Shown: positions 405 to 27,216 of the stretch, one piece after another
How positions within the stretch are numbered: the first letter of the stretch is position 1
Layout: every line of letters begins with the position of its first letter
From: a virus
DNA length: 44,628 bases
Virus genome (UHGV): UHGV-0097092
Strand: one strand, 5' to 3'
Program-made: the position numbers and the translations under genes
The notes under the pieces: generated by a model
Told to the model about the DNA's origin: nothing
Seen by the model: only the letters and a program-made list of their open reading frames with translations
Databases searched by the model: none

Positions 405-794
405 TTAAATCACAGGTCTATAATCAAACTCCCCACTTCGGGCATCATTAATGACATGAGTGATCACACCAAACACAGCATTACTGCCCGTGCATCCATC
501 GTCATCTACTGGTAACGCCTCTTTCTTCCCGGTGCTTAAATCCTCCAGGTGCTGGCGCGGATACTTCCTGTATCTCTTTATGCGATATTCACCCTCCATA
601 GCGCATATAAGCAGTGAACCATCAACCGGAGTAAGTGAGGAATCAACCACCAGCAAAGCACCTTGCAATATTCCCTCACGGTGATGGCTGTCTGCCGCCC
701 GCATGAAGTAGGTCGCGGAAGGATGTCTGATTAGTTGCTGATCAAGAGAAATGCGGCTCTCTGCATAATCCGCCGCAGGAGAAGGGAAGCCCAT
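405..794 (-). CDS. humD: UmuD'-like S24 peptidase lacking the N-terminal tail (P1 HumD-like)
   Basis: 129 aa starting M-GFPSPAADY, which matches UmuD just after its self-cleavage site; Ser and Lys of the catalytic dyad context retained; LexA box 19 bp upstream. Confidence 0.7.
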   Translation of the reverse strand: MGFPSPAADYAESRISLDQQLIRHPSATYFMRAADSHHREGILQGALLVVDSSLTPVDGSLLICAMEGEYRIKRYRKYPRQHLEDLSTGKKEALPVDDDGCTGSNAVFGVITHVINDARSGEFDYRPVI

Positions 795-917: not shown

Positions 918-1169
918 TTATTTTTTTGGTGCATCCTCGTTCTGATACACCGGATCGCTCCCTTTTGGCAACTGGAGGCTTAACTGCCGGTAGTGCCGTA
1001 GCCGTTCCATGAAATAGGCGCGCAGATTCTCTGGTTGCTCGCGGGCTACCTGTTCAGCTATGACAGGTATGTTCAATCGCTCTTTGTACGCCACACCGCT
1101 GGCAGCCAGATCAACGTTAACCTTATCCCGTTCTTCCTGACTTTTAGCTGCAATATTCCAGTCGCTCAT
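918..1169 (-). CDS. hot: DNA polymerase III theta-subunit homologue (HolE-like; P1 Hot-like)
   Basis: 83 aa; segment [43 protein letters not shown] closely parallels recalled E. coli HolE. Confidence 0.65.
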
Positions 1170-5249: not shown

Positions 5250-5744
5250 CTACTCACCTCCGTTGATGCGAATGCCTGTTGCAATGCTGTTTATGATGCT
5301 GTCAGTGCATGGAGTAGAAAGCTGGGCATCTCCAGCAATTTTCATGACCTCAACATCTGCATATCGAATACCGAGGTGTATCAGACCTGCTATGCCTGAC
5401 TTAAGCCGAGCATTTTCCATAAATAGAACCTTTGCCATCTGTTTTTCTGCTTCAAGCTCAACGCGCAGCTTCCCTACCGTTAGCGCAATATCCTCGTTCT
5501 CCTGGTCGCGGAGTTTGATGTATTGCTGGTTTTTTTCCCGTTCATCCAGTAGTGCCAAAGCAACCTTTGGATTAAAGGCAGCAATAAATTCAGCGTTGTT
5601 TTTCAGAACGTGTTGCGCAATGGCCTGACTACTTAGTCGGACCTCATAACCACGTGCGCCACGGTGTGGTTTATATGAGTCCCAGTCTCCCCACGTTGCT
5701 TTCTCTGCCGCCTCACGCAGTGCCTGGTAATTAATTTCGCTCAC
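5250..5744 (-). CDS. Ead/Ea22-like protein
   Basis: N-terminus MSEINYQALREAAEKAT... typical of Ea22-like prophage proteins. Confidence 0.55.
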   Translation of the reverse strand: MSEINYQALREAAEKATWGDWDSYKPHRGARGYEVRLSSQAIAQHVLKNNAEFIAAFNPKVALALLDEREKNQQYIKLRDQENEDIALTVGKLRVELEAEKQMAKVLFMENARLKSGIAGLIHLGIRYADVEVMKIAGDAQLSTPCTDSIINSIATGIRINGGE

Positions 5745-6358
5745 TGGTTGCCTCCTTTGCGAAGCTGTTCAGCAATACTTACGCATATCTCTGCGCCTCT
5801 AATCAGCCCCGGAACGTTCTTGTTTGGCCCAACTTCACCATCAACAAAATCAATCATCGCGTTACGAGCCATATCCACCCCCTGCGCCCGCACTTCCGCC
5901 AGGAAAGCGTCGGTAGCTGGCGTTTCGCTGTGGTGCAGGGCATCATTAATAATCATCGCAGCAACTCCGGCCTGCCCTGCATCCGTTACCGACACATGCT
6001 CAAGAGTTACGGCCATTGCGTGTTTCAGTCCGGCGTTCTCTGCCACCAGCGCCGCGATATTAGTTTCAAGCTCTGCAATACGGCACATAGCATCAATATT
6101 TGAGTCCTCCTGACGTTTAATTTCATCCAGTAGTGACAACGCAACTTTTGGTGGGATAGCCGCGATATAACGGGCATTAGCACCAGCATTCCTTTGTCCA
6201 TCAATGCCAGGCCAGTCAATAAAGTATCCGCAATGCCTACCTTCAGACGTGCGCGCAGGATAAATGCCGTTATGACCCGGCAAAATATATGCTACCCATT
6301 CATCTTGCGTTGCCTGTTCCGCCGCCTCGCGCAGTTCTTGATAGTTAATTTTGCTCAC
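5741..6358 (-). CDS. Ead/Ea22-like protein
   Basis: N-terminus MSKINYQELREAAEQAT; C-terminal module [17 protein letters not shown]...QLRKGGNQ shared with the gene at 8934..9650. Confidence 0.6.
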   Translation of the reverse strand: MSKINYQELREAAEQATQDEWVAYILPGHNGIYPARTSEGRHCGYFIDWPGIDGQRNAGANARYIAAIPPKVALSLLDEIKRQEDSNIDAMCRIAELETNIAALVAENAGLKHAMAVTLEHVSVTDAGQAGVAAMIINDALHHSETPATDAFLAEVRAQGVDMARNAMIDFVDGEVGPNKNVPGLIRGAEICVSIAEQLRKGGNQ

Positions 6359-6657: not shown

Positions 6658-7653
6658 TCAGTTATTAAACGTGATCACTCCGCGCTCGATGGCGAAGTCG
6701 AAAAGCTGGTTAGCGACTACATAAAGGCGTATGCCATGTGCTTTTTCCCATGCCCGGACATCGTGTTCTGCGCTTCTGGCGCAGTCATCGCAAAGAGGAA
6801 CAGCCCAGCGGTCGTGTTCGTTTAACGAGCGGGCGCGGTACATGAACGGGTGGTTAACTTTGCCACCGCATCCGATGCACGGACGAGAAACCACAAAGCG
6901 GAGATAAGCCGGGCTTTTTCCGAGTAAGGTTTTTGGACGGCGCATATATAGGAGGCCAGAATCCTCATCTACAGACAGGTTGACGATCTGCTCTGCGGTT
7001 ATGTCCACCAGCTCGCGCGTACTGCGCTCCCAGGTGATATCTGATTCTTTCAGCGTACCGGTAGGGATTTCAGTTTTTGGCTGACAAAATGCAATGCGCC
7101 CGGCTTCATCTGGCAGCTCATCTTTCAGATTCCGGCGAATGGCCCAAAAAGTGAGTTCAACCATGCTCAGATCGCGTTCTGGCGGTAGTTTTAACTCGCT
7201 CGCAGCCCAGTTCATAACCCAGTTGGCGCGATTCAGGGATAACTGGTCGTCCAGCTTGCTGTACCCCTTCATCATGTATTCCGCATCATGCTTCCAGCAC
7301 AGGCGAACGGCAGAACCGTTATAGAAGTGAGTGGTTAGCTGGTGGCTACAATCGCGCTTATCATGCGCCTGGCAATCGTGAATGTTGGTGCTAACCCAGT
7401 GAACGATAGAATCCTCGCCACCTAACGCATTAAATACGCGCTCACTTTGAAAAAAGGGTGTCAGTGACTGGTTGGCAACCAGGGAATAATTCAGATCCAC
7501 GACGCCATCAGGGGTGTTTTCAGCCTGTTCGCGCGGCAATGGGGAGATAAGAAAACGGCGGCCTGCGCCGATGTAATTGCTGGTGGGCTTATCTACAGGA
7601 AAGACAGCCACACCAGTTTCATTTACGACATATGGGGTGATTATTGCACTCAT
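6658..7653 (-). CDS. DUF968-family protein with Cys-rich C-terminal region
   Basis: 331 aa; C-terminal RPCIGCGG...PLCDDCARSAEHD resembles the DUF968 HNH-like region. Confidence 0.55.
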   Translation of the reverse strand: MSAIITPYVVNETGVAVFPVDKPTSNYIGAGRRFLISPLPREQAENTPDGVVDLNYSLVANQSLTPFFQSERVFNALGGEDSIVHWVSTNIHDCQAHDKRDCSHQLTTHFYNGSAVRLCWKHDAEYMMKGYSKLDDQLSLNRANWVMNWAASELKLPPERDLSMVELTFWAIRRNLKDELPDEAGRIAFCQPKTEIPTGTLKESDITWERSTRELVDITAEQIVNLSVDEDSGLLYMRRPKTLLGKSPAYLRFVVSRPCIGCGGKVNHPFMYRARSLNEHDRWAVPLCDDCARSAEHDVRAWEKAHGIRLYVVANQLFDFAIERGVITFNN

Positions 7654-8665: not shown

Positions 8666-8937
8666 TTGGTTTTCTCCTGTCTGAACATCACTATCATCAG
8701 GTCGCCTTTTGTCGCTATCCTCGCTGTTGTGCCTGGTTCAATGCGGCTAAGTTCAAATGCGTCATAGAACGCCTCCAACGCTTTCTGGCGTTTTTCCTGT
8801 TTGCGGCGCTTTCCCCACTGCTTTAGAAAAACAGAGGCCGCCCACTTCCCCGCACTGAACATGATGTAAAACCAACCGAGAAGTGCCAGACCGGTATTTA
8901 GGAGCGTATCGATCGTTATTGTCGTGTCGATATTCAC
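8662..8937 (-). CDS. small membrane protein
   Basis: 91 aa with a hydrophobic helix (LLGWFYIMFSAG) followed by a basic stretch. Confidence 0.45.
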   Translation of the reverse strand: MNIDTTITIDTLLNTGLALLGWFYIMFSAGKWAASVFLKQWGKRRKQEKRQKALEAFYDAFELSRIEPGTTARIATKGDLMIVMFRQEKTK

Positions 8938-9650
8938 TGGTTGCCTCCTTTGCGAAGCTGGTCGGCGAACAAACGTACACCAGACGCTTCACTGCGTAGA
9001 AACTTAACGGCATAATCAAAACCACCTCGTTCTGCGTCGTCTGCTGCGTTGTCGAGGTTATCTGCGTACATCTCTACCCCCTGCGCACGCACTTCAGCCA
9101 GGAAAGCGTCGGTGGCTGGGGTTTCAACACGGATGCTGTCGCGCAAGATGAAAAATGCATTGAGCATTCCTGTCTCTGGCACTTCATCCTGATGCTTCTC
9201 ATACGCATCAAGAGCCTTCATCATCTCAGCTCCGAATGGTTGAGGGTGCACAGACTTCAGCTCCGCATTCTCCGCCGCCAGCACCACGCGTTCGCTCTCC
9301 AGTTCTGCAATGCGCTGTTTTGCGGCATCAAGTTCAATCGATAATTTTTCCAACTGCTCTTTATGCTTCTTGTATTCCTGATATGCGTGCCAAGACTGAC
9401 CTTTGCGCACACTATCCGTGATATCAGTAATCTGTTCTGGTGTTAGCGTGGTCAGTGGCTGTGCTGGGAAAATCAGCACTTTGCCGGAATCCCAATCAAA
9501 ACCAGCGTGAATTGACTGAACCTCAACTGATGGTGTTGAACCGATGCGACCAGGCGAATGAACAACGATCGTTACATCCATATCGCGACGATGGCTGTGG
9601 TTGTTGGACAAAATACGATTCACCAACTCAGAAAATTTGGAAAATTTCAT
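8934..9650 (-). CDS. Ead/Ea22-like protein (start taken at ATG 9650)
   Basis: shares the C-terminal module and the 3' junction sequence cactggttgcctcctttgcgaagctg with 5741..6358; ATGA overlap with the upstream gene. Confidence 0.55.
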
Positions 9651-10009
9651 GCTGATTCCCTTTGCTCTTCCTGGATAATGTTGTTGCAATCTTTCACGCA
9701 CTCGTTGCAGATGAAGACGTTGTCCCCGGCAATTAACTTTTTAACGGTGTGCTGGGATTTGTTGCAGAAGCTGCAATAAAGCGTTGGACTGGTTGATACG
9801 GATGGTGCGCCAGATGTCAGCCGCGCGATGTCGTTCTTGCGACGCAATATCACACGGCTGAACTCAACCAGCTTCTCCGGGGATATATCCTCCTCCGTAG
9901 CGAGCGTTTCTAATCGTTCGAGTATGTGGAAGGCTTTTTCCTGGGTAATCCTGGGTAATTCAGCGTTACGCTCTGCCAGTTGTGCGGGCGTTAAACCTTC
10001 AGACTTCAT
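9647..10009 (-). CDS. protein with C-terminal ClpX-type C4 zinc-finger domain
   Basis: [39 protein letters not shown] closely parallels the ClpX N-terminal zinc-binding domain. Confidence 0.6.
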
Positions 10010-10316
10010 GCACTCTCCTTTCGAAATAAACGTACTGATTAATCATGCCCAGGGGCATTTCGAGTTTTTCCGCGATCTCACGGCGGGGAACGCCGCATTG
10101 ATGAAGTTGCCGCGCCAGCTCTATATCGCTCTGCCGATATTTGGCTGACTGGTGAAAGTCACCTTTCAGAATCATTCTGATCCCCAGTTCCCGCGCTTTA
10201 GTCCTGACAGCATCTCCGGTACGCCCGATCAGCCTCCCAATACTCTCGACCGTCATAGTTCCGGCGCACTGGCGGAGTATCATGATTTCTGCCCTTCCCC
10301 ATCCCCGCCAGCTCAC
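9999..10316 (-). CDS. small DNA-binding (helix-turn-helix-like) protein
   Basis: 105 aa; HTH-like segment [26 protein letters not shown]. Confidence 0.45.
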
Positions 10317-11091: not shown

Positions 11092-11130
11092 GTCCTCCAA
11101 ACAGTAAACAGCGACTGATATTAATGTTTT

Positions 11131-11163
11131 ATGTTAGAAAATCAATTTTGAATATCTAACAAA
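11131..11163. promoter_or_regulatory. promoter-operator-like palindromic motif, copy B (divergent region)
   Basis: ATGTTAGAAAATCAATTTTGAATATCTAACAAA between the leftward array and the ref-like gene. Confidence 0.45.
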
Positions 11164-11209
11164 TATGATCAATCATAAAAAAATCGCTGATAAGTAAGAG
11201 GCAGCCAAC

Positions 11210-16184: not shown

Positions 16185-16544
16185 TCATACACCAACCAGG
16201 CTTTCAAGAGGAATGCCAAACTGGGAATGTAAACGACGAATCATAGGTAACGTTAAATTTCGTGTCCCATTTAGCACTTCGTAAACACGATTTGACTTAC
16301 CAATCGCCGGTTCCAGATCCTTCACGGTCAGCCCTTGCTGTTCCATACGGAATTTAATGGCTTCAATAGGTGATGGTGGCTCAATTGGGTAATGCTTTTT
16401 CTCGTACTCTTCAATGAGCAGGCACATTACTTCAAAGAAATCGCCTTCCGGTGTGTTCATTTCCGGTTCGTTATCGAACATCGGTTCGACCGCACGCAGT
16501 GCGGCCTCATAATCTTGTTCTGTACGGATAGGTTTAATGTTCAT
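16185..16544 (-). CDS. higA: HigA-family antitoxin (XRE-type HTH)
   Basis: C-terminal HTH IGKSNRVYEVLNGTRNLTLPMIRRLHSQFGIP; sits directly downstream of the HigB-like toxin gene. Confidence 0.65.
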   Translation of the reverse strand: MNIKPIRTEQDYEAALRAVEPMFDNEPEMNTPEGDFFEVMCLLIEEYEKKHYPIEPPSPIEAIKFRMEQQGLTVKDLEPAIGKSNRVYEVLNGTRNLTLPMIRRLHSQFGIPLESLVGV

Positions 16545-16547
16545 GAT

Positions 16548-16850
16548 TTACTCCAGTTCTATTGTATCAGCTTCAATGGCATCGTATTCCTTATGTGTTC
16601 CAATAAACTTAACGAACATCCATCCTCGCTGATAAGCAATTGCGACAATTAACCTGTAATCATTTCCCTTAATATTGAACACCACGCGCCTGTTTTTAAG
16701 GATGCTGGCTGTCCGGTACTGTTCTTTGATCTCAGCCGGATTTTTCCAGTCAGCCTTTGTTGCTTCATCAACCCATGCCTTTAATGGCTGTTCTGCATCG
16801 GGATTCTTCGCCCAGAAATCCCTTAGTGTTTTTACCGAAATTATTTTCAT
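16548..16850 (-). CDS. higB: HigB-family (RelE/ParE-fold) toxin
   Basis: start MKIISVKTL; VFNIKGNDYRLIVAIAY...FVKFIGTHKEYD pattern typical of HigB. Confidence 0.65.
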   Translation of the reverse strand: MKIISVKTLRDFWAKNPDAEQPLKAWVDEATKADWKNPAEIKEQYRTASILKNRRVVFNIKGNDYRLIVAIAYQRGWMFVKFIGTHKEYDAIEADTIELE

Positions 16851-16878
16851 CACAGATTCCTTCTCGCTGAAAGTATAG

Positions 16879-16926
16879 TAGTCCCAATATGGGACAATGT
16901 AAAGCACTTTAGTCCCATGTTGGGAT
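16879..16926. promoter_or_regulatory. two palindromic operator-like sites upstream of higB
   Basis: TAGTCCCAATATGGGACA and TAGTCCCATGTTGGGATA flanking an AT-rich promoter-like stretch. Confidence 0.45.
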
Positions 16927-20244: not shown

Positions 20245-21150
20245 ATGAGATCAGTCGCTTTCAAAAACATCTTCATCTATCGTCTTTCACGTGAAGTTAA
20301 CTGGAGTGCCGCAGAAGTATCCGATGCTCTTAGCAAATTCGTGTTTACTCCTTGCGGTTCTCAGGACACAGCTAAAGTCGGTTGGACACCTGTTCTTGGT
20401 GACAACCTCACCCATGAATACCAGGGTTTTCTGCTAATACAGCATAAGCGAGAAGAAAAAATTCTCCCCTCGCAGGTGCTCAAGGAAGAGTTGCAGAAAA
20501 AAGTCCTGAAACTCGAAGAAGAGCAAGCCCGCAAGCTGAAGAAAACGGAAAGAGACAGTCTTAAAGATGAAGTCCTGCATTCACTTTTGCCTCGCGCGTT
20601 CACGAGAAAATCACTCGCCAAAATCCTGATCGACCGCAGCAACCATCTGGTATTCGTTGAGGCAAGCAGCGCCAAAAAGGCAGAGGACCAGCTGGCTTTA
20701 TTGCGAAAGTCGCTCGGCAGCCTGCCTGTCATTCCATTCACACCACGCGAACCGCTGGAAATTACAATGACCGAGTGGTTTAAAAGCGGCTTCCCTGCCG
20801 GATTTACAGCAGGTGAAGACGCCACATTAAAGGGTCTGCTCGATAATGGTGGTGCCGTTCGCTGCAACAAAGTTGATCTACAGTCCGACGAGATTATGTC
20901 TCACATTGAGGCGGGGAAAGTAGCTACGACCGTTGCAATTAACTGGATGGACCGTGCGTCGTTCAGAGTCAACGATGATATGAGTATCAAAGCCCTGACA
21001 TTCTGTGATGATCTCTATGACCAGAACGACGATATCGACCGGGAGGATGTAGCACAACGATTTGATGCTGATTTCGTGCTCTTTACGGGTGAATTATCTG
21101 CACTGTTTAACGCGCTGGTGGAGGCCATTGGCGGTGAAGCAGAACGATAA
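20245..21150 (+). CDS. rdgC: recombination-associated protein RdgC
   Basis: full-length similarity to recalled E. coli RdgC ([68 protein letters not shown]). Confidence 0.85.
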
Positions 21151-22760: not shown

Positions 22761-24422
22761 TTAACCTAACTTCGCCCAGGTATCACGCAGCCCAACGGTG
22801 CGGTTAAATACCGGTTTTTCCGCCGTAGAATGGCGGCTGTCGAGGCAGAAATAACCTTCACGCTCAAACTGGAATGCTTTACCCGCTACCGCTTCTTTCA
22901 GCGACGGTTCAGCAAAGCCTTGTTTGATCACCAGCGATTCCGGGTTAATCACCGACAGGAAATCATCCGCAGCACCAGGGTTCGGCACGCTGAACAGACG
23001 GTCGTACAGACGGATTTCAACCGGCAGCGCATGTGCCGCGCTCACCCAGTGAATAACACCTTTGACTTTACGACCATCTGCCGGATCTTTGCTTAAGGTG
23101 TCGGCGTCATAAGTACAGAAGATGGTGGTGATATTGCCTTCGGCATCTTTCTCCACGCGTTCAGCCTTAATGACGTAAGCATTACGCAGACGCACTTCTT
23201 TACCCAGCACCAGACGTTTGTACTGCTTGTTAGCTTCTTCTCGGAAATCGGCGCGGTCGATCCAAATCTCACCGCTAAACGGCACCTGACGGCTACCCAT
23301 TTCCGGTTTGTTTGGATGGTTCGGCATGGTGACCATTTCGCCTTCGCCCTGGTAGTTTTCGATAACCAGTTTCACCGGATCGATAACCGCCATTGCGCGC
23401 GGCGCATTTTCGTTGAGATCTTCACGGATGCAGGATTCCAGCGACGCCATCTCAATGGTGTTGTCCTGCTTGGTCACGCCGATGCGTTTGCAGAACTCAC
23501 GAATAGAAGCCGCAGTGTAACCACGACGACGCAGACCGGAAATGGTCGGCATACGCGGGTCATCCCAGCCTTCAACGTGCTTGTCGGTCACCAGCAGGTT
23601 CAGCTTACGCTTGGACATCACAGTGTATTCCAGATTCAGGCGCGAGAATTCGTACTGGCGCGGGTGAACAGGAATGGTGATGTTGTCCAGCACCCAGTCG
23701 TACAGGCGACGGTTGTCCTGGAACTCAAGCGTACACAGAGAGTGCGTAATACCTTCCAGCGCATCGCTGATGCAGTGGGTGAAGTCGTACATCGGGTAGA
23801 TGCACCACTTGTTGCCAGTCTGGTGGTGTTCAGCAAATTTAATACGGTACAGCACCGGATCGCGCATCACGATAAACGGTGAAGCCATGTCGATTTTCGC
23901 ACGCAGGCAGGCTTTACCTTCTTCAAAACCACCGGCACGCATTTTTTCGAACAGCGCCAGGTTCTCTTCAACGCTGCGGTCGCGGTACGGGCTGTTTTTA
24001 CCCGGTTGCGTCAGGGTGCCGCGGTATTCGCGGATCTGTTCCGGCGTCAGTTCATCAACGTACGCCAGGCCTTTATTGATCAGTTCGATCGCATAGGCGT
24101 GGAGCTGATCAAAATAATCGGAGGAGTAACGGACGTTACCAGACCAGTGAAAACCTAACCACTCTACGTCGTTTTTGATCGACTCAACATACTCGATATC
24201 TTCTTTTACCGGGTTAGTGTCGTCGAAACGCAGGTTGCACTGGCCTTTATAGTCCTGGGCGATCCCGAAGTTCAGGCAGATAGATTTCGCATGGCCAATA
24301 TGCAGATAGCCATTTGGTTCCGGCGGGAAACGGGTATGTACTGTGGTGTGCTTACCACTGGCCAGATCTTCATCGATGATCTGACGAATGAAGTTAGTCG
24401 GGCGGGCTTCTGCCTCACTCAT
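22761..24422 (-). CDS. glnS: glutaminyl-tRNA synthetase, near-identical to E. coli GlnRS as recalled
   Basis: 553 aa; N-terminus [52 protein letters not shown] and VMSKR class I motifs. Confidence 0.95.
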
Positions 24423-25880: not shown

Positions 25881-25899
25881 TAAACCAGCACATCTTCTG

Positions 25900-26244
25900 T
25901 CAATCAGGTAGAGAGTCAGCCAGATTGCGCGCCGACGCGCTTTTGGCAACAACTTGCTCCTTCACTGGCTCAATGGAGGCAGGGCGCTCCTCAACCGCAG
26001 CTGGTAGTTCCAGGAAGGATGCCAGCATTTTTCGGATCAGCTCCGGGTTATTGTCTTCGGTCAGCAGGGAAGCCAGTAATCCTGGAAGCCTGCTATCGAC
26101 TTCTCCCAGCGCAAGCCCTGCCAACAATGCGGTTCTTGCCATATCGCTATGTTTTTTTATCTTCTCGCTAGCCGCCTTTTCATTGGCATAAGCCTCTGGG
26201 CGAAGATAAATCATCACTTTCTTACGTTCCTGAGACATGGACAT
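25900..26244 (-). CDS. parR: ParR/StbB-like partition adaptor
   Basis: KVMIYLRPEA...RTALLAGLAL...PGLLASLL aligns with recalled R1 ParR. Confidence 0.6.
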   Translation of the reverse strand: MSMSQERKKVMIYLRPEAYANEKAASEKIKKHSDMARTALLAGLALGEVDSRLPGLLASLLTEDNNPELIRKMLASFLELPAAVEERPASIEPVKEQVVAKSASARNLADSLPD

Positions 26245-26251
26245 TACCTCG

Positions 26252-27191
26252 TTAACCGATTGCTTTCAGGCCATGAACAAGAGCAAGTTGCGGGTCATCC
26301 GCCACGAAGAAACGGTCATCACGAATATTAACTTGCTCGCGAATTGCATCTGCCACCAGCGGTGCGCCACCACCGATCACCATGACATGCGTATATCCTT
26401 TAAAGAACGCGGGTACGCAGACGGTCAATGCTTGCGGCAATGGCCTTTTTCACATCACCAACCGCTGATGGGTCATTGATATTGTCGTTCAGATAATCTT
26501 CATCGTGGCGGTTAATAATGAGCTGATCGACATTGTAATTTGACGTTTCGGTATTGGCTCTGGCAAGTGCTTGCCTTACTTCCCTGGTAACCAGAGAGAC
26601 GCCAAGATTCGAATCGCCAAAAACACGGGAAACTGCCGTCATTTGCCCGGCGACCATTGAAACATCAAGGGTAGTTCCACCCAAATCGACGATAAGAACA
26701 GAATGGGCAGGGTTCAGATTGTCGCACAGGCCAATTCCTGCCGGAATAGACTCCGGGCGTACCGTAACTTTCTTAATCGTGAACACATTGCCTTTATTCA
26801 GCGTGACGGGGCGCATAAGGCTGGCTTTCTTGCGCTCGATGTTATCGAGATTGTATTGCGCGTCGTCGTCGTAAAACTCCGCCAGAGGCAGCGTGACCAC
26901 AATTTCTACTTCCTGCGGCTCAATGCCACTTGTCAGCAGGGCATGGTGAACAGCCAGGACGTTAAGCGGGCTGTATTGCCATTCCACGTTATTCGTCGGC
27001 AGAACATCTGGCGAGATCAAATCATACGAATACTTTTCGTCGTCAATGACATAGTTAAACGGCTTGCCCGCACCAAATGTTGCTGACCATCCGCGCTTAA
27101 AGCTGTTAGGGCTGATGTGAGTGCGAGTTTCCCCGTCGTGCTCCCACAGCATTTTGATATTGGTTGAACCATCATCGATAAAAATGCGCAT
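26252..27191 (-). pseudogene. parM: ParM/StbA-like actin-type partition ATPase, interrupted by a frameshift near 26400-26420
   Basis: N-terminal 263 aa (MRIFIDDGSTNIK...DRLRTRVL) stops at 26400; the conserved C-terminus (GYTHVMVIGGGAPLVADAIREQ...) continues in another frame (26252..26440). Confidence 0.6.
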
Positions 27192-27216
27192 CTTCTTGCT
27201 CCACTTCTGAGACACA

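Follow-up and report, generated by a model that had tools for sequence, protein, structure and literature searches.

The stretch of DNA analysed here, called the window throughout, is the 44,628-nucleotide UHGV virus genome UHGV-0097092, which by its sequence is a D6-like (P1-type) phage-plasmid of Escherichia coli. On its minus strand, at 9647..10009, it carries a complete coding sequence for a protein of 120 residues, the C-terminal part of which is a stand-alone copy of the zinc-binding domain (ZBD) of the ClpX unfoldase. The identity of this domain is confirmed far beyond chance. As to its role, we propose, with a probability of about 0.4, that the protein competes in trans with the ClpX N-domain for docking peptides and would thereby shift the choice of substrates made by ClpXP. 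A decoy or adaptor function on ClpXP, first put forward in a preliminary description of this DNA, is plausible by analogy to what is known of the ClpX domain.

Residues 78-114 (9668..9778, minus strand) make up a treble-clef C4 zinc domain, as identified by Pfam, by comparison with ClpX N-domain structures and by model superposition. They match zf-C4_ClpX (PF06689) with E = 1.4e-17 and 63.7 bits, the gathering score being 27, over model positions 2-39 of 39. When the PDB sequences were searched with phmmer, significant matches were obtained to ClpX N-domains (1ovx, E = 1.7e-15; 2ds5, 6.4e-15) and to full-length ClpX (9ndj and 8e91, E about 1e-14), and to nothing else. Identity to E. coli ClpX amounts to 28 of 41 residues over the ZBD, and BLASTP aligned 49 residues with 30 identities (E = 1e-21). 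The zinc motif C79-x2-C82-x18-C101-x2-C104 corresponds to C14, C17, C36 and C39 of ClpX with a constant offset of 65; its codons lie on the minus strand at 9773-9775 (C79), 9764-9766 (C82), 9707-9709 (C101) and 9698-9700 (C104). Indeed, the four cysteines (CxxC-x18-CxxC) are invariant in all sequences of the family to which the protein belongs; homologues aligned over its whole length are from Escherichia and Salmonella.

An AlphaFold2 model built on 25 family sequences had a mean predicted local distance difference test score (pLDDT) of 78.6, with values of 84-89 across most of the ZBD, where it predicts a β-hairpin (strands at residues 92-94 and 99-101) and a C-terminal helix at 102-119. With Foldseek, the modelled ZBD superposed on the crystal structures 2DS5, 2DS6 and 2DS8 (the last being the XB-peptide complex) at 0.5-0.6 Å over 38 residues with 71% identity; the range becomes 0.5-1.5 Å when 1OVX is included. 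The preliminary description had placed a ClpX-type zinc domain in the C-terminal ~40 residues and had made its case depend on structural similarity to the ClpX ZBD. Both are borne out, by the Pfam match, by PDB matches at about 1e-15 and by the fit of the model to 2DS5, 2DS6 and 2DS8.

The rest of ClpX is missing. The NCBIfam ClpX equivalog models gave 47.1 and 43.2 bits for cut-offs of 359 and 370.75, with only model positions 5-50 aligned, and the protein stops 6 residues past the ZBD match, so that the AAA+ module (Walker A/B, pore loops and IGF loop) is absent. The phage protein therefore cannot unfold anything itself, and the stand-alone, phage-borne copy that had been described is real, the carrier being a phage-plasmid. 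Neither Pfam nor NCBIfam gave a match to the SspB family, and the C-terminus of the protein is the ZBD helix, not an XB peptide. With the PADLOC-DB v2 defence models (E<=0.01), no match was obtained for the ZBD protein, for its homologue in the P2-family prophage P88 or for the neighbours of either.

The published biology of the ClpX domain suggests what such a copy might do. In ClpX, it is on the ZBD that SspB, RssB and N-domain-dependent substrates dock (PMC9035409; PMC7804408). The isolated domain dimerises (PMC9035409), and its dimerisation makes ClpX a trimer of dimers (PMC9035409; PMC7226468). Mutagenesis has assigned F16 and I46 to a hydrophobic region that contacts trigger factor and overlaps the lambda O site, and SspB and RssB bind there too (PMC7804408). 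Deletion of the ZBD abolishes degradation of lambda O and RssB-dependent degradation of sigma-S, but not that of ssrA-tagged proteins (PMC7226468; PMC7804408). XB-containing peptides bind the isolated ZBD at 35-82 nM (PMC12373786). Finally, purified ClpX ZBD added in trans at 5-20 µM inhibits RssB-dependent degradation of sigma-S in vitro and cross-links to RssB, which makes a role as a trans competitor plausible for the phage protein (PMC7226468). By homology, the phage ZBD would be expected to bind zinc and to dimerise.

To what extent the phage copy resembles ClpX was judged by setting 32 distinct ZBDs of the family against 34 distinct ones of ClpX from the homology search. The docking residues are kept: F81, the counterpart of F16, is invariant (34/34), and position 111, the counterpart of I46, is Ile or Val in 29 of the 32 distinct sequences and Ile in the window. 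Twenty-five positions are at least 90% conserved in the sampled ClpX, and by inspection the window copy retains 24 of them, its sole change being P31 to Asp; at less conserved positions it carries G18N, E23T, L42D and D45N. The core hydrophobic residues L12, F16, I28, V33, I35, V40 and I47 are kept at 90% or more in the family. The P88 subtype has the hairpin and helix of E. coli ClpX exactly (IAGPSVYIC...ECVDLCN), is identical to it at 31 of 40 residues and, by our own count, retains 22 of the 25 conserved positions.

This resemblance appears to be old. Compared with E. coli clpX, the ZBD codons are saturated at synonymous sites (proportion of differences 0.80-1.0), and amino-acid identity is 60-78%. 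A recent capture from the host clpX was considered and rejected: two blastn searches matched only 241 and 221 of 5426 E. coli genomes, and since clpX should be in every genome, clpX itself was left unmatched even at E<=10. Because synonymous sites are saturated, identity is 60-78% and nucleotide matches to clpX are lacking, the sequences indicate that the ZBD was captured long ago from a proteobacterial clpX and that its ClpX-like sequence has been held by purifying selection.

We therefore favour, at the probability given above, a mechanism of competition. The phage ZBD would bind the short peptides by which adaptors and N-domain-dependent substrates dock on ClpX, candidate ligands being the XB-type L-K/R-x-h motifs of SspB as well as RssB, the UmuD tether and lambda O- or MuA-type signals. 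The outcome would be an altered choice of ClpXP substrates rather than a block of the whole protease. Plain ssrA-type degradation would be spared because it needs no ZBD (PMC7226468), and degradation of GFP-ssrA would for the same reason be informative on the competitor only with SspB present. In the phage protein, the N-terminal domain might add dimerisation or avidity, or a second specificity. Competition is suggested by the kept counterparts of F16 and I46, by the 24 of 25 conserved positions in the window copy, by a similarity maintained under selection despite synonymous saturation, by the ZBD-only mini-proteins that other phages seem to have acquired independently and by the presence of the family in 241 of 5426 E. 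coli genomes. It is in this sense that we infer both ligand competition and a biological pay-off. In the most far-reaching form of the idea, which we hold to be unlikely as it stands, the protein would be a virus's natural imitation of the ClpX N-domain, reprogramming the substrate selection of ClpXP as a trans-acting "anti-N-domain" and residing on plasmid-prophages and in a P2 defence hotspot. As a speculation, the acidic replacement of P31 (often also of S32) at the hairpin turn might tune affinity for the basic L-K/R-x-h motifs.

The ZBD is only one part of the protein. Throughout the family the layout is constant, a helical hairpin followed by a Ser/Pro/Gly linker and then the ZBD. In the window, the family-specific N-domain covers residues 21-66 (9812..9949, minus strand) and is predicted to form a two-helix hairpin of ~45 residues (helices 23-39 and 44-66), with a pLDDT of 90-95 over residues 21-50. 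The Ser/Pro/Gly-rich linker, residues 67-77 (9779..9811, minus strand), is modelled with lower confidence (pLDDT 66-70 in blocks 61-80). Because of this low confidence, together with a predicted template modelling score (pTM) of 0.37, hairpin and ZBD are probably flexibly tethered, no fixed interdomain geometry being predicted. An exhaustive phmmer search of 1.84 billion representative proteins with the hairpin alone returned 8 matches, all of them members of the ZBD family or truncated copies; the hairpin is thus an orphan domain, never found without the ZBD. It carries a nearly invariant motif, L55-R56-R57-K58 (codons 9836-9847; context VILRRKND), which is similar to the consensus for ZBD binding, L-K/R-x-h, and to LRVVK in the tail of SspB, and is predicted to be helical. 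That this motif binds the protein's own ZBD is a speculation.

The start of the window protein comes from elsewhere. Codons 1-20 (9950..10009, minus strand) form a recombinant 5' leader, the homology to the family starting at gene nucleotide 61. Typical family members have 105-112 residues and start MTTSHSAIT..., and the window protein opens with the same 17 residues as D6 orf91, which is an Ea22-like gene. Nucleotides 1-50 of the ZBD gene are identical to the start of this gene, which in other D6-like plasmids is found at the corresponding place behind the DNA-binding gene. Because its first 17 residues are those of the Ea22-like orf91, we read the window allele as a recombinant in which the ZBD gene has been placed under the translation start of an Ea22-like gene. 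These 17 residues are all that the two have in common, and no match to Ead_Ea22 (PF13935) was found in the ZBD protein.

Several observations weigh against a competitor of ClpX, and the variability of the family's surface is a real caution for any decoy. P31, conserved in 94% of the sampled ClpX, has given way to Asp or Glu in 27 of 32 distinct ZBDs of the family. The window copy reads AGD at the ClpX-invariant hairpin turn A29-G30-P31 and has Asp for L42 and Asn for G18; these changes lie in or near the β-hairpin and helix of the binding surface, and affinity for ClpX ligands may therefore be altered or lost. Family-wide, 14 of the 25 ClpX-conserved positions stay at least 90% conserved, comprising the four cysteines and the structural core, and 11 are relaxed (Y13, S20, H22, K26, A29, P31, F34, I46 and others); one subclade even has a rewritten hairpin (IITGEGVCIC). 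The ClpX set used for this comparison is itself biased towards sequences that have 5-mers in common with the query. Rates of substitution point the same way. For the 15 pairs with ratios for both domains, dN/dS was 0.17-0.39 in 14 pairs for the N-domain and 0.21-0.80 for the ZBD, values that are indicative only since the segments are short and the sample small; the exception was the closest pair, L007/L010, in which the N-domain gave 1.26 on almost no substitutions. The ZBD ratio exceeded that of the N-domain in 14 of the 15 computable pairs, the opposite of what is expected of a strict mimic. Both domains thus appear mostly constrained; the constraint on the ZBD surface seems weaker than that on the N-domain and much weaker than in ClpX. 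Lastly, a full-text literature search for stand-alone ZBDs of phages and for mimics, decoys or inhibitors of ClpX returned nothing relevant; a jumbo-phage paper mentions phage ClpX as a full-length protein only.

These points feed a serious alternative, if a rather doubtful one in our estimate, in which the ZBD is a repurposed module, a mere compact, zinc-stabilised domain for dimerisation or peptide binding that serves the N-terminal hairpin or Ea22-type scaffolds and has its targets among phage or host proteins outside ClpXP. The better conserved N-domain, which never occurs without the ZBD, would then be the active part. In favour of this, ClpX-invariant surface positions vary within the family, P31 being replaced by Asp or Glu. 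The domain has also been shuffled as a module: in a second recombinant, the metagenomic sequence P0029, an Ea22-like N-terminal coiled coil is joined at the linker to an identical ZBD, and the gene always lies among mosaic Ea22-type genes. Moreover, dimerisation is a property of the isolated ClpX ZBD (PMC9035409). However, fold and dimerisation alone need no 60-78% identity to ClpX after synonymous saturation, nor would they require 24 (window) or 22 (P88 type) of the 25 ClpX-conserved positions, and the independent ZBD-only mini-proteins of other phages argue that the ZBD itself is the active part.

The protein might instead act on ClpX directly, its ZBD heterodimerising with the ClpX ZBD or sitting on the ring so that the hairpin becomes a new adaptor, recruiting a substrate of the phage's choice, or a lid that blocks the N-domain. 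That ZBDs dimerise and make ClpX a trimer of dimers would allow this (PMC9035409; PMC7226468), as would the core hydrophobic residues kept in the family, and a binding domain, flexible linker and docking domain in series is the logic of an adaptor such as SspB. L42, however, is Asp in the window copy and variable in the family. In ClpX, the ZBD dimers form within the hexamer at a high local concentration, so that exchange with a free protein seems doubtful, and the phage protein would more readily homodimerise. We consider this docking distinctly improbable. That the gene is a decaying or functionless passenger left by recombination among Ea22-like genes, as its foreign 5' end, the truncated or frameshifted relatives P0122, P0123, P0125 and P0126 and its absence from many D6-like plasmids might suggest, is very unlikely given its intact frame, strong Shine-Dalgarno sequence and coupled neighbours, a dN/dS that, with one comparison excepted, stays below 1 in both domains, the invariant cysteines and core residues, and the persistence of the family in three phage backgrounds and in ~4% of the complete E. 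coli genomes.

If the protein is a trans competitor of the ClpX N-domain, several pay-offs can be imagined. Many regulators of importance to temperate phages and plasmids have their fate set by ClpXP, among them sigma-S, UmuD', lambda O, MuA and Phd, fragments of LexA and of repressors, and certain antitoxins of defence systems. A first possible benefit is a stabilisation of sigma-S in the manner of the Ira-type anti-adaptors. A second might be the shielding of the element's own HumD/UmuD'-type protein. UmuD'-type proteins are substrates of ClpXP, which degrades the UmuD' partners of UmuD by tethering, and the humD-like gene is therefore a candidate beneficiary. This gene lies on the strand of the ZBD gene in the window, and in the phage-plasmid PhiR41_1 a UmuD homologue is found 3.5 kb downstream of the ZBD gene. 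A third possibility, given the location of some family members in the P2 hotspot, is the exclusion of phages that need the ClpX N-domain, such as Mu, the transpososome of which must be remodelled by ClpX. A role against the ClpXP-dependent toxin-antitoxin-chaperone defence, in which ClpX reads a C-terminal Ala-Ala degron (bioRxiv 2024.02.24.581848), is less likely, because such ssrA-like degrons need no ZBD (PMC7226468).

Were the competitor model true, it would reveal a new and simple principle, the competitive mimicry of a protease's receptor domain by a gene of a mobile element, and the first known phage protein that acts on a host AAA+ protease by copying its docking domain. It would also provide a natural tool for a selective shut-off of N-domain-dependent degradation that leaves ssrA-type quality control intact. 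To our knowledge, all known steering of ClpXP is by adaptors or anti-adaptors with folds of their own. The question is a general one, since ~4% of complete E. coli genomes contain a member of the family and unrelated phages encode analogous ZBD mini-proteins. As the domain annotation is already in databases, the value of the finding lies in a cheap and well-defined hypothesis.

What is already known is indeed that annotation, found in RefSeq, Pfam and PHROG. In the near-identical plasmid pTB423, the coding sequence at 9647-10009 has its counterpart in RefSeq WP_085452301.1, named "ClpX C4-type zinc finger protein", and the full-length protein belongs to PHROG 6797, listed as of unknown function. 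Many NCBI records (e.g. D6 orf93, P88 gp19, P0001 and P0003) instead bear the name "carboxylate--amine ligase", which we reject as a propagated misannotation because the protein has 120 residues and no ligase domain: Pfam found only zf-C4_ClpX and NCBIfam only the ClpX N-terminus, and neither gave a match to an ATP-grasp or glutamate-cysteine-ligase-type catalytic domain. New are the two-domain family with its orphan N-domain, its presence in three phage backgrounds including the P2 hotspot, the ancient capture followed by selection, the hallmark change of P31 to Asp or Glu and the recombinant origin of the window allele.

A blastn search of complete E. coli genomes found the gene or parts of it in 241 of 5426 (~4%), at 172 places on plasmids and 103 on the chromosome. 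Three temperate-phage backgrounds carry the family. The first is that of the D6-like phage-plasmids, many of which lack the gene. The second consists of phage-plasmids of ~106-114 kb; an example is PhiR41_1, in which the gene is flanked by Ea22 genes and lies upstream of the UmuD homologue mentioned above. In the third, P2-family prophages (P88 and UTI89-type), it is found between replication gene A and the portal gene, usually after a ParM/ParR cassette; the more distant members P0038 and P0121 are likewise located between A and portal/ogr, in other P2-like prophages that have no ParM there. This A-to-portal interval is a documented P2 hotspot of accessory and anti-phage genes. A supplementary table of PMC9122126 lists cassettes of "StbA + Plasmid_stab_B + zf-C4_ClpX + hypothetical", which the text of that paper neither discusses nor tests. 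A partition cassette of ParM and Plasmid_stab_B is present in the window too, at 25888-27195 (minus strand), and stands immediately 5' of the ZBD gene in P88-like prophages (locus L005, 5480-6755). The family is mostly found on elements with a plasmid-prophage lifestyle, with loci L015 and L016 as exceptions. At L016, a P2-like prophage without the ParM cassette, a long and nearly perfect palindrome (6905-6961, CACTGTCTTACTTTGTCCGTACTTTT ... AAAAGTACGGACAAAGTAAGACAGTG) lies directly 5' of the ZBD gene; a terminator, an operator or a recombination site are candidates for its identity.

Outside the family, ZBD-only mini-proteins were found in Pseudomonas phage PP9W2 (gp081, 65 residues, in a replication/nin-like region) and in Caulobacter phage Cr30 (gp170, 41 residues), and from these sequences phages seem to have captured the ZBD more than once. 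Two stand-alone metagenomic proteins of 176 residues, P0034 and P0035, contain two tandem ClpX-type ZBDs with a third CxxC...CxxC element behind them, and are another architecture of this domain outside ClpX. A scan of genome contigs for the wider taxonomic range was discarded, as it was swamped by true clpX; the long matches at L019, L063 and L096 were tblastn run-on upstream of clpX.

In the window, the span 9647-10009 that had been described with no strand stated is exactly one open reading frame on the minus strand, from an ATG at 10009-10007 to a TGA at 9649-9647. A Shine-Dalgarno sequence, AAGGAG (10015..10020, minus strand), is read 5 nucleotides 5' of the ATG. The gene upstream (9999..10283, minus strand) encodes a small DNA-binding protein of PHROG 323, "transcriptional regulator", and its stop overlaps the start of the ZBD gene by 11 nucleotides. 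Downstream, the TGA of the ZBD gene overlaps the ATG of a gene for an Ea22-like modular protein of 238 residues (8934..9650, minus strand); this ATGA suggests translational coupling of the two. Because of the 11-nucleotide and ATGA overlaps, the ZBD gene lies within a tightly packed minus-strand operon. Its strong Shine-Dalgarno sequence, the overlaps with its neighbours and a dN/dS below 1 in both domains for all but one pair indicate, at the level of sequence, that the gene is real and expressed within this operon. The best explanation is a non-essential accessory ("moron") gene that is co-transcribed with other ea-type accessory genes. The accessory operon further encodes a DUF4406 protein, other Ea22-like proteins, DUF4752, a ppp-like phosphatase, DUF968, DUF551 and ASCH proteins.

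This operon probably starts at an AT-rich intergenic region (11092..11209, assigned to no strand) that separates it from the divergent ref gene and that we take, from its sequence, as a putative promoter/operator region. It contains imperfect inverted repeats at 11120-11180, with 26-nucleotide arms that are 73% complementary (11120-11145/11148-11173) and 12-nucleotide arms that are 83% complementary, and these may be an operator. No promoter-like or terminator-like site was found on the minus strand between 8800 and 11400, and the P1 C1 operator consensus had no match in the whole window. A LexA box, CTGT-N8-ACAG, occurs once in the window, at 815-830 just upstream of the humD-like gene, and none lies near the ZBD gene; a single match to this pattern is statistically unremarkable, as it was also obtained in 32 of 100 shuffles.

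The 1-kb region around the ZBD gene shares 99.9% identity with pTB423 (NZ_CP034790.1, 91.8 kb) and, within the part that matches, 87% with phage D6. The first 145 residues encoded by the downstream gene are 79% identical to those of the gene 3' of the ZBD gene in PhiR41_1. No partner gene is common to all backgrounds, the P88 type having a different neighbour. Ea22-like genes are strongly mosaic (window 5250-6358, 8934-9650 and 9950-10009; L001 6306-7327), with common N-terminal leaders, coiled-coil cores (AAENAxLK) and swappable C-terminal modules; true Ead_Ea22 (PF13935) genes are found nearby at 5250-5744 and 5741-6358.

The window carries other cargo. The humD-like gene (405-794, minus strand) encodes an S24 peptidase without the N-terminal arm, and on the same strand lies a homologue of P1 hot, the theta subunit of Pol III (918-1169, minus strand). 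A HigB toxin and helix-turn-helix antitoxin pair (16185-16907, minus strand; HigB_toxin E = 5e-34) lies between a mat-like region and the tail genes, and an RdgC homologue (20245-21150, plus strand; E = 5e-103) stands among the tail genes. In the tail region that corresponds to this one in the near-identical plasmid, a PAAR-domain protein is annotated (L004 27473-27757, plus strand, with an offset of ~12 nucleotides relative to the window). Between the tail genes and the partition region is found a full-length glutaminyl-tRNA synthetase of 553 residues (22761-24422, minus strand; tRNA-synt_1c E = 1.5e-129, with both anticodon-binding domains); such a synthetase is seldom expected as cargo of a P1-type plasmid-prophage.

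The phage protein can finally be set beside known systems. It has in common with the ClpX N-domain the Pfam family, the CxxC-x18-CxxC site, 28 of 41 residues, a fold predicted to agree at 0.5 Å and the counterparts of F16 and I46. It differs in that its ZBD is C-terminal in a protein of 120 residues, behind a helical hairpin and with no AAA+ unfoldase attached, and in the changes P31 to Asp, L42 to Asp and G18 to Asn. The recombinant isolated ClpX ZBD is likewise free of the motor (PMC7226468). However, that was a laboratory fragment used at 5-20 µM, whereas the phage protein is encoded by a natural gene, contains an additional domain and has altered residues in the hairpin. Should the decoy model hold, the phage protein would also resemble the anti-adaptors IraD, IraM and IraP, small proteins that stop the delivery of sigma-S to ClpXP by RssB, and the ZBD and IraD have been proposed to share a site on RssB (PMC7226468). 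The Ira proteins are unrelated to it in sequence and fold, are encoded by chromosomal stress-induced genes and bind the adaptor with folds of their own, not with a copy of a ClpX domain. With SspB it has in common a modular logic, a folded domain, a flexible linker and an element that docks into the ClpX network; however, SspB carries the ZBD-binding XB peptide, whereas the phage protein carries the ZBD and has no homology to SspB. T4 PinA and T7 gp4.5, phage inhibitors of Lon, are likewise small phage proteins that modulate regulated proteolysis of the host, but they act on another protease and have unrelated folds. We know of no such phage protease inhibitor that is a copy of the protease's own domain. 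Relatives are found among phages themselves. P88 gp19 (WP_001163786), from the gpA-gpQ hotspot of P2-like prophages, belongs to the same two-domain family, with 49% identity over 101 residues and both domains aligned. Unlike the window protein, it keeps the AGPSVYIC and DLC of ClpX exactly, adjoins a ParM/ParR cassette and has a different downstream gene. PP9W2 gp081 and Cr30 gp170 are also stand-alone ClpX-type ZBDs from early or accessory phage gene regions, but they lack the N-terminal hairpin and are only ~40-45% identical, and their sequences suggest that they are probably independent captures.

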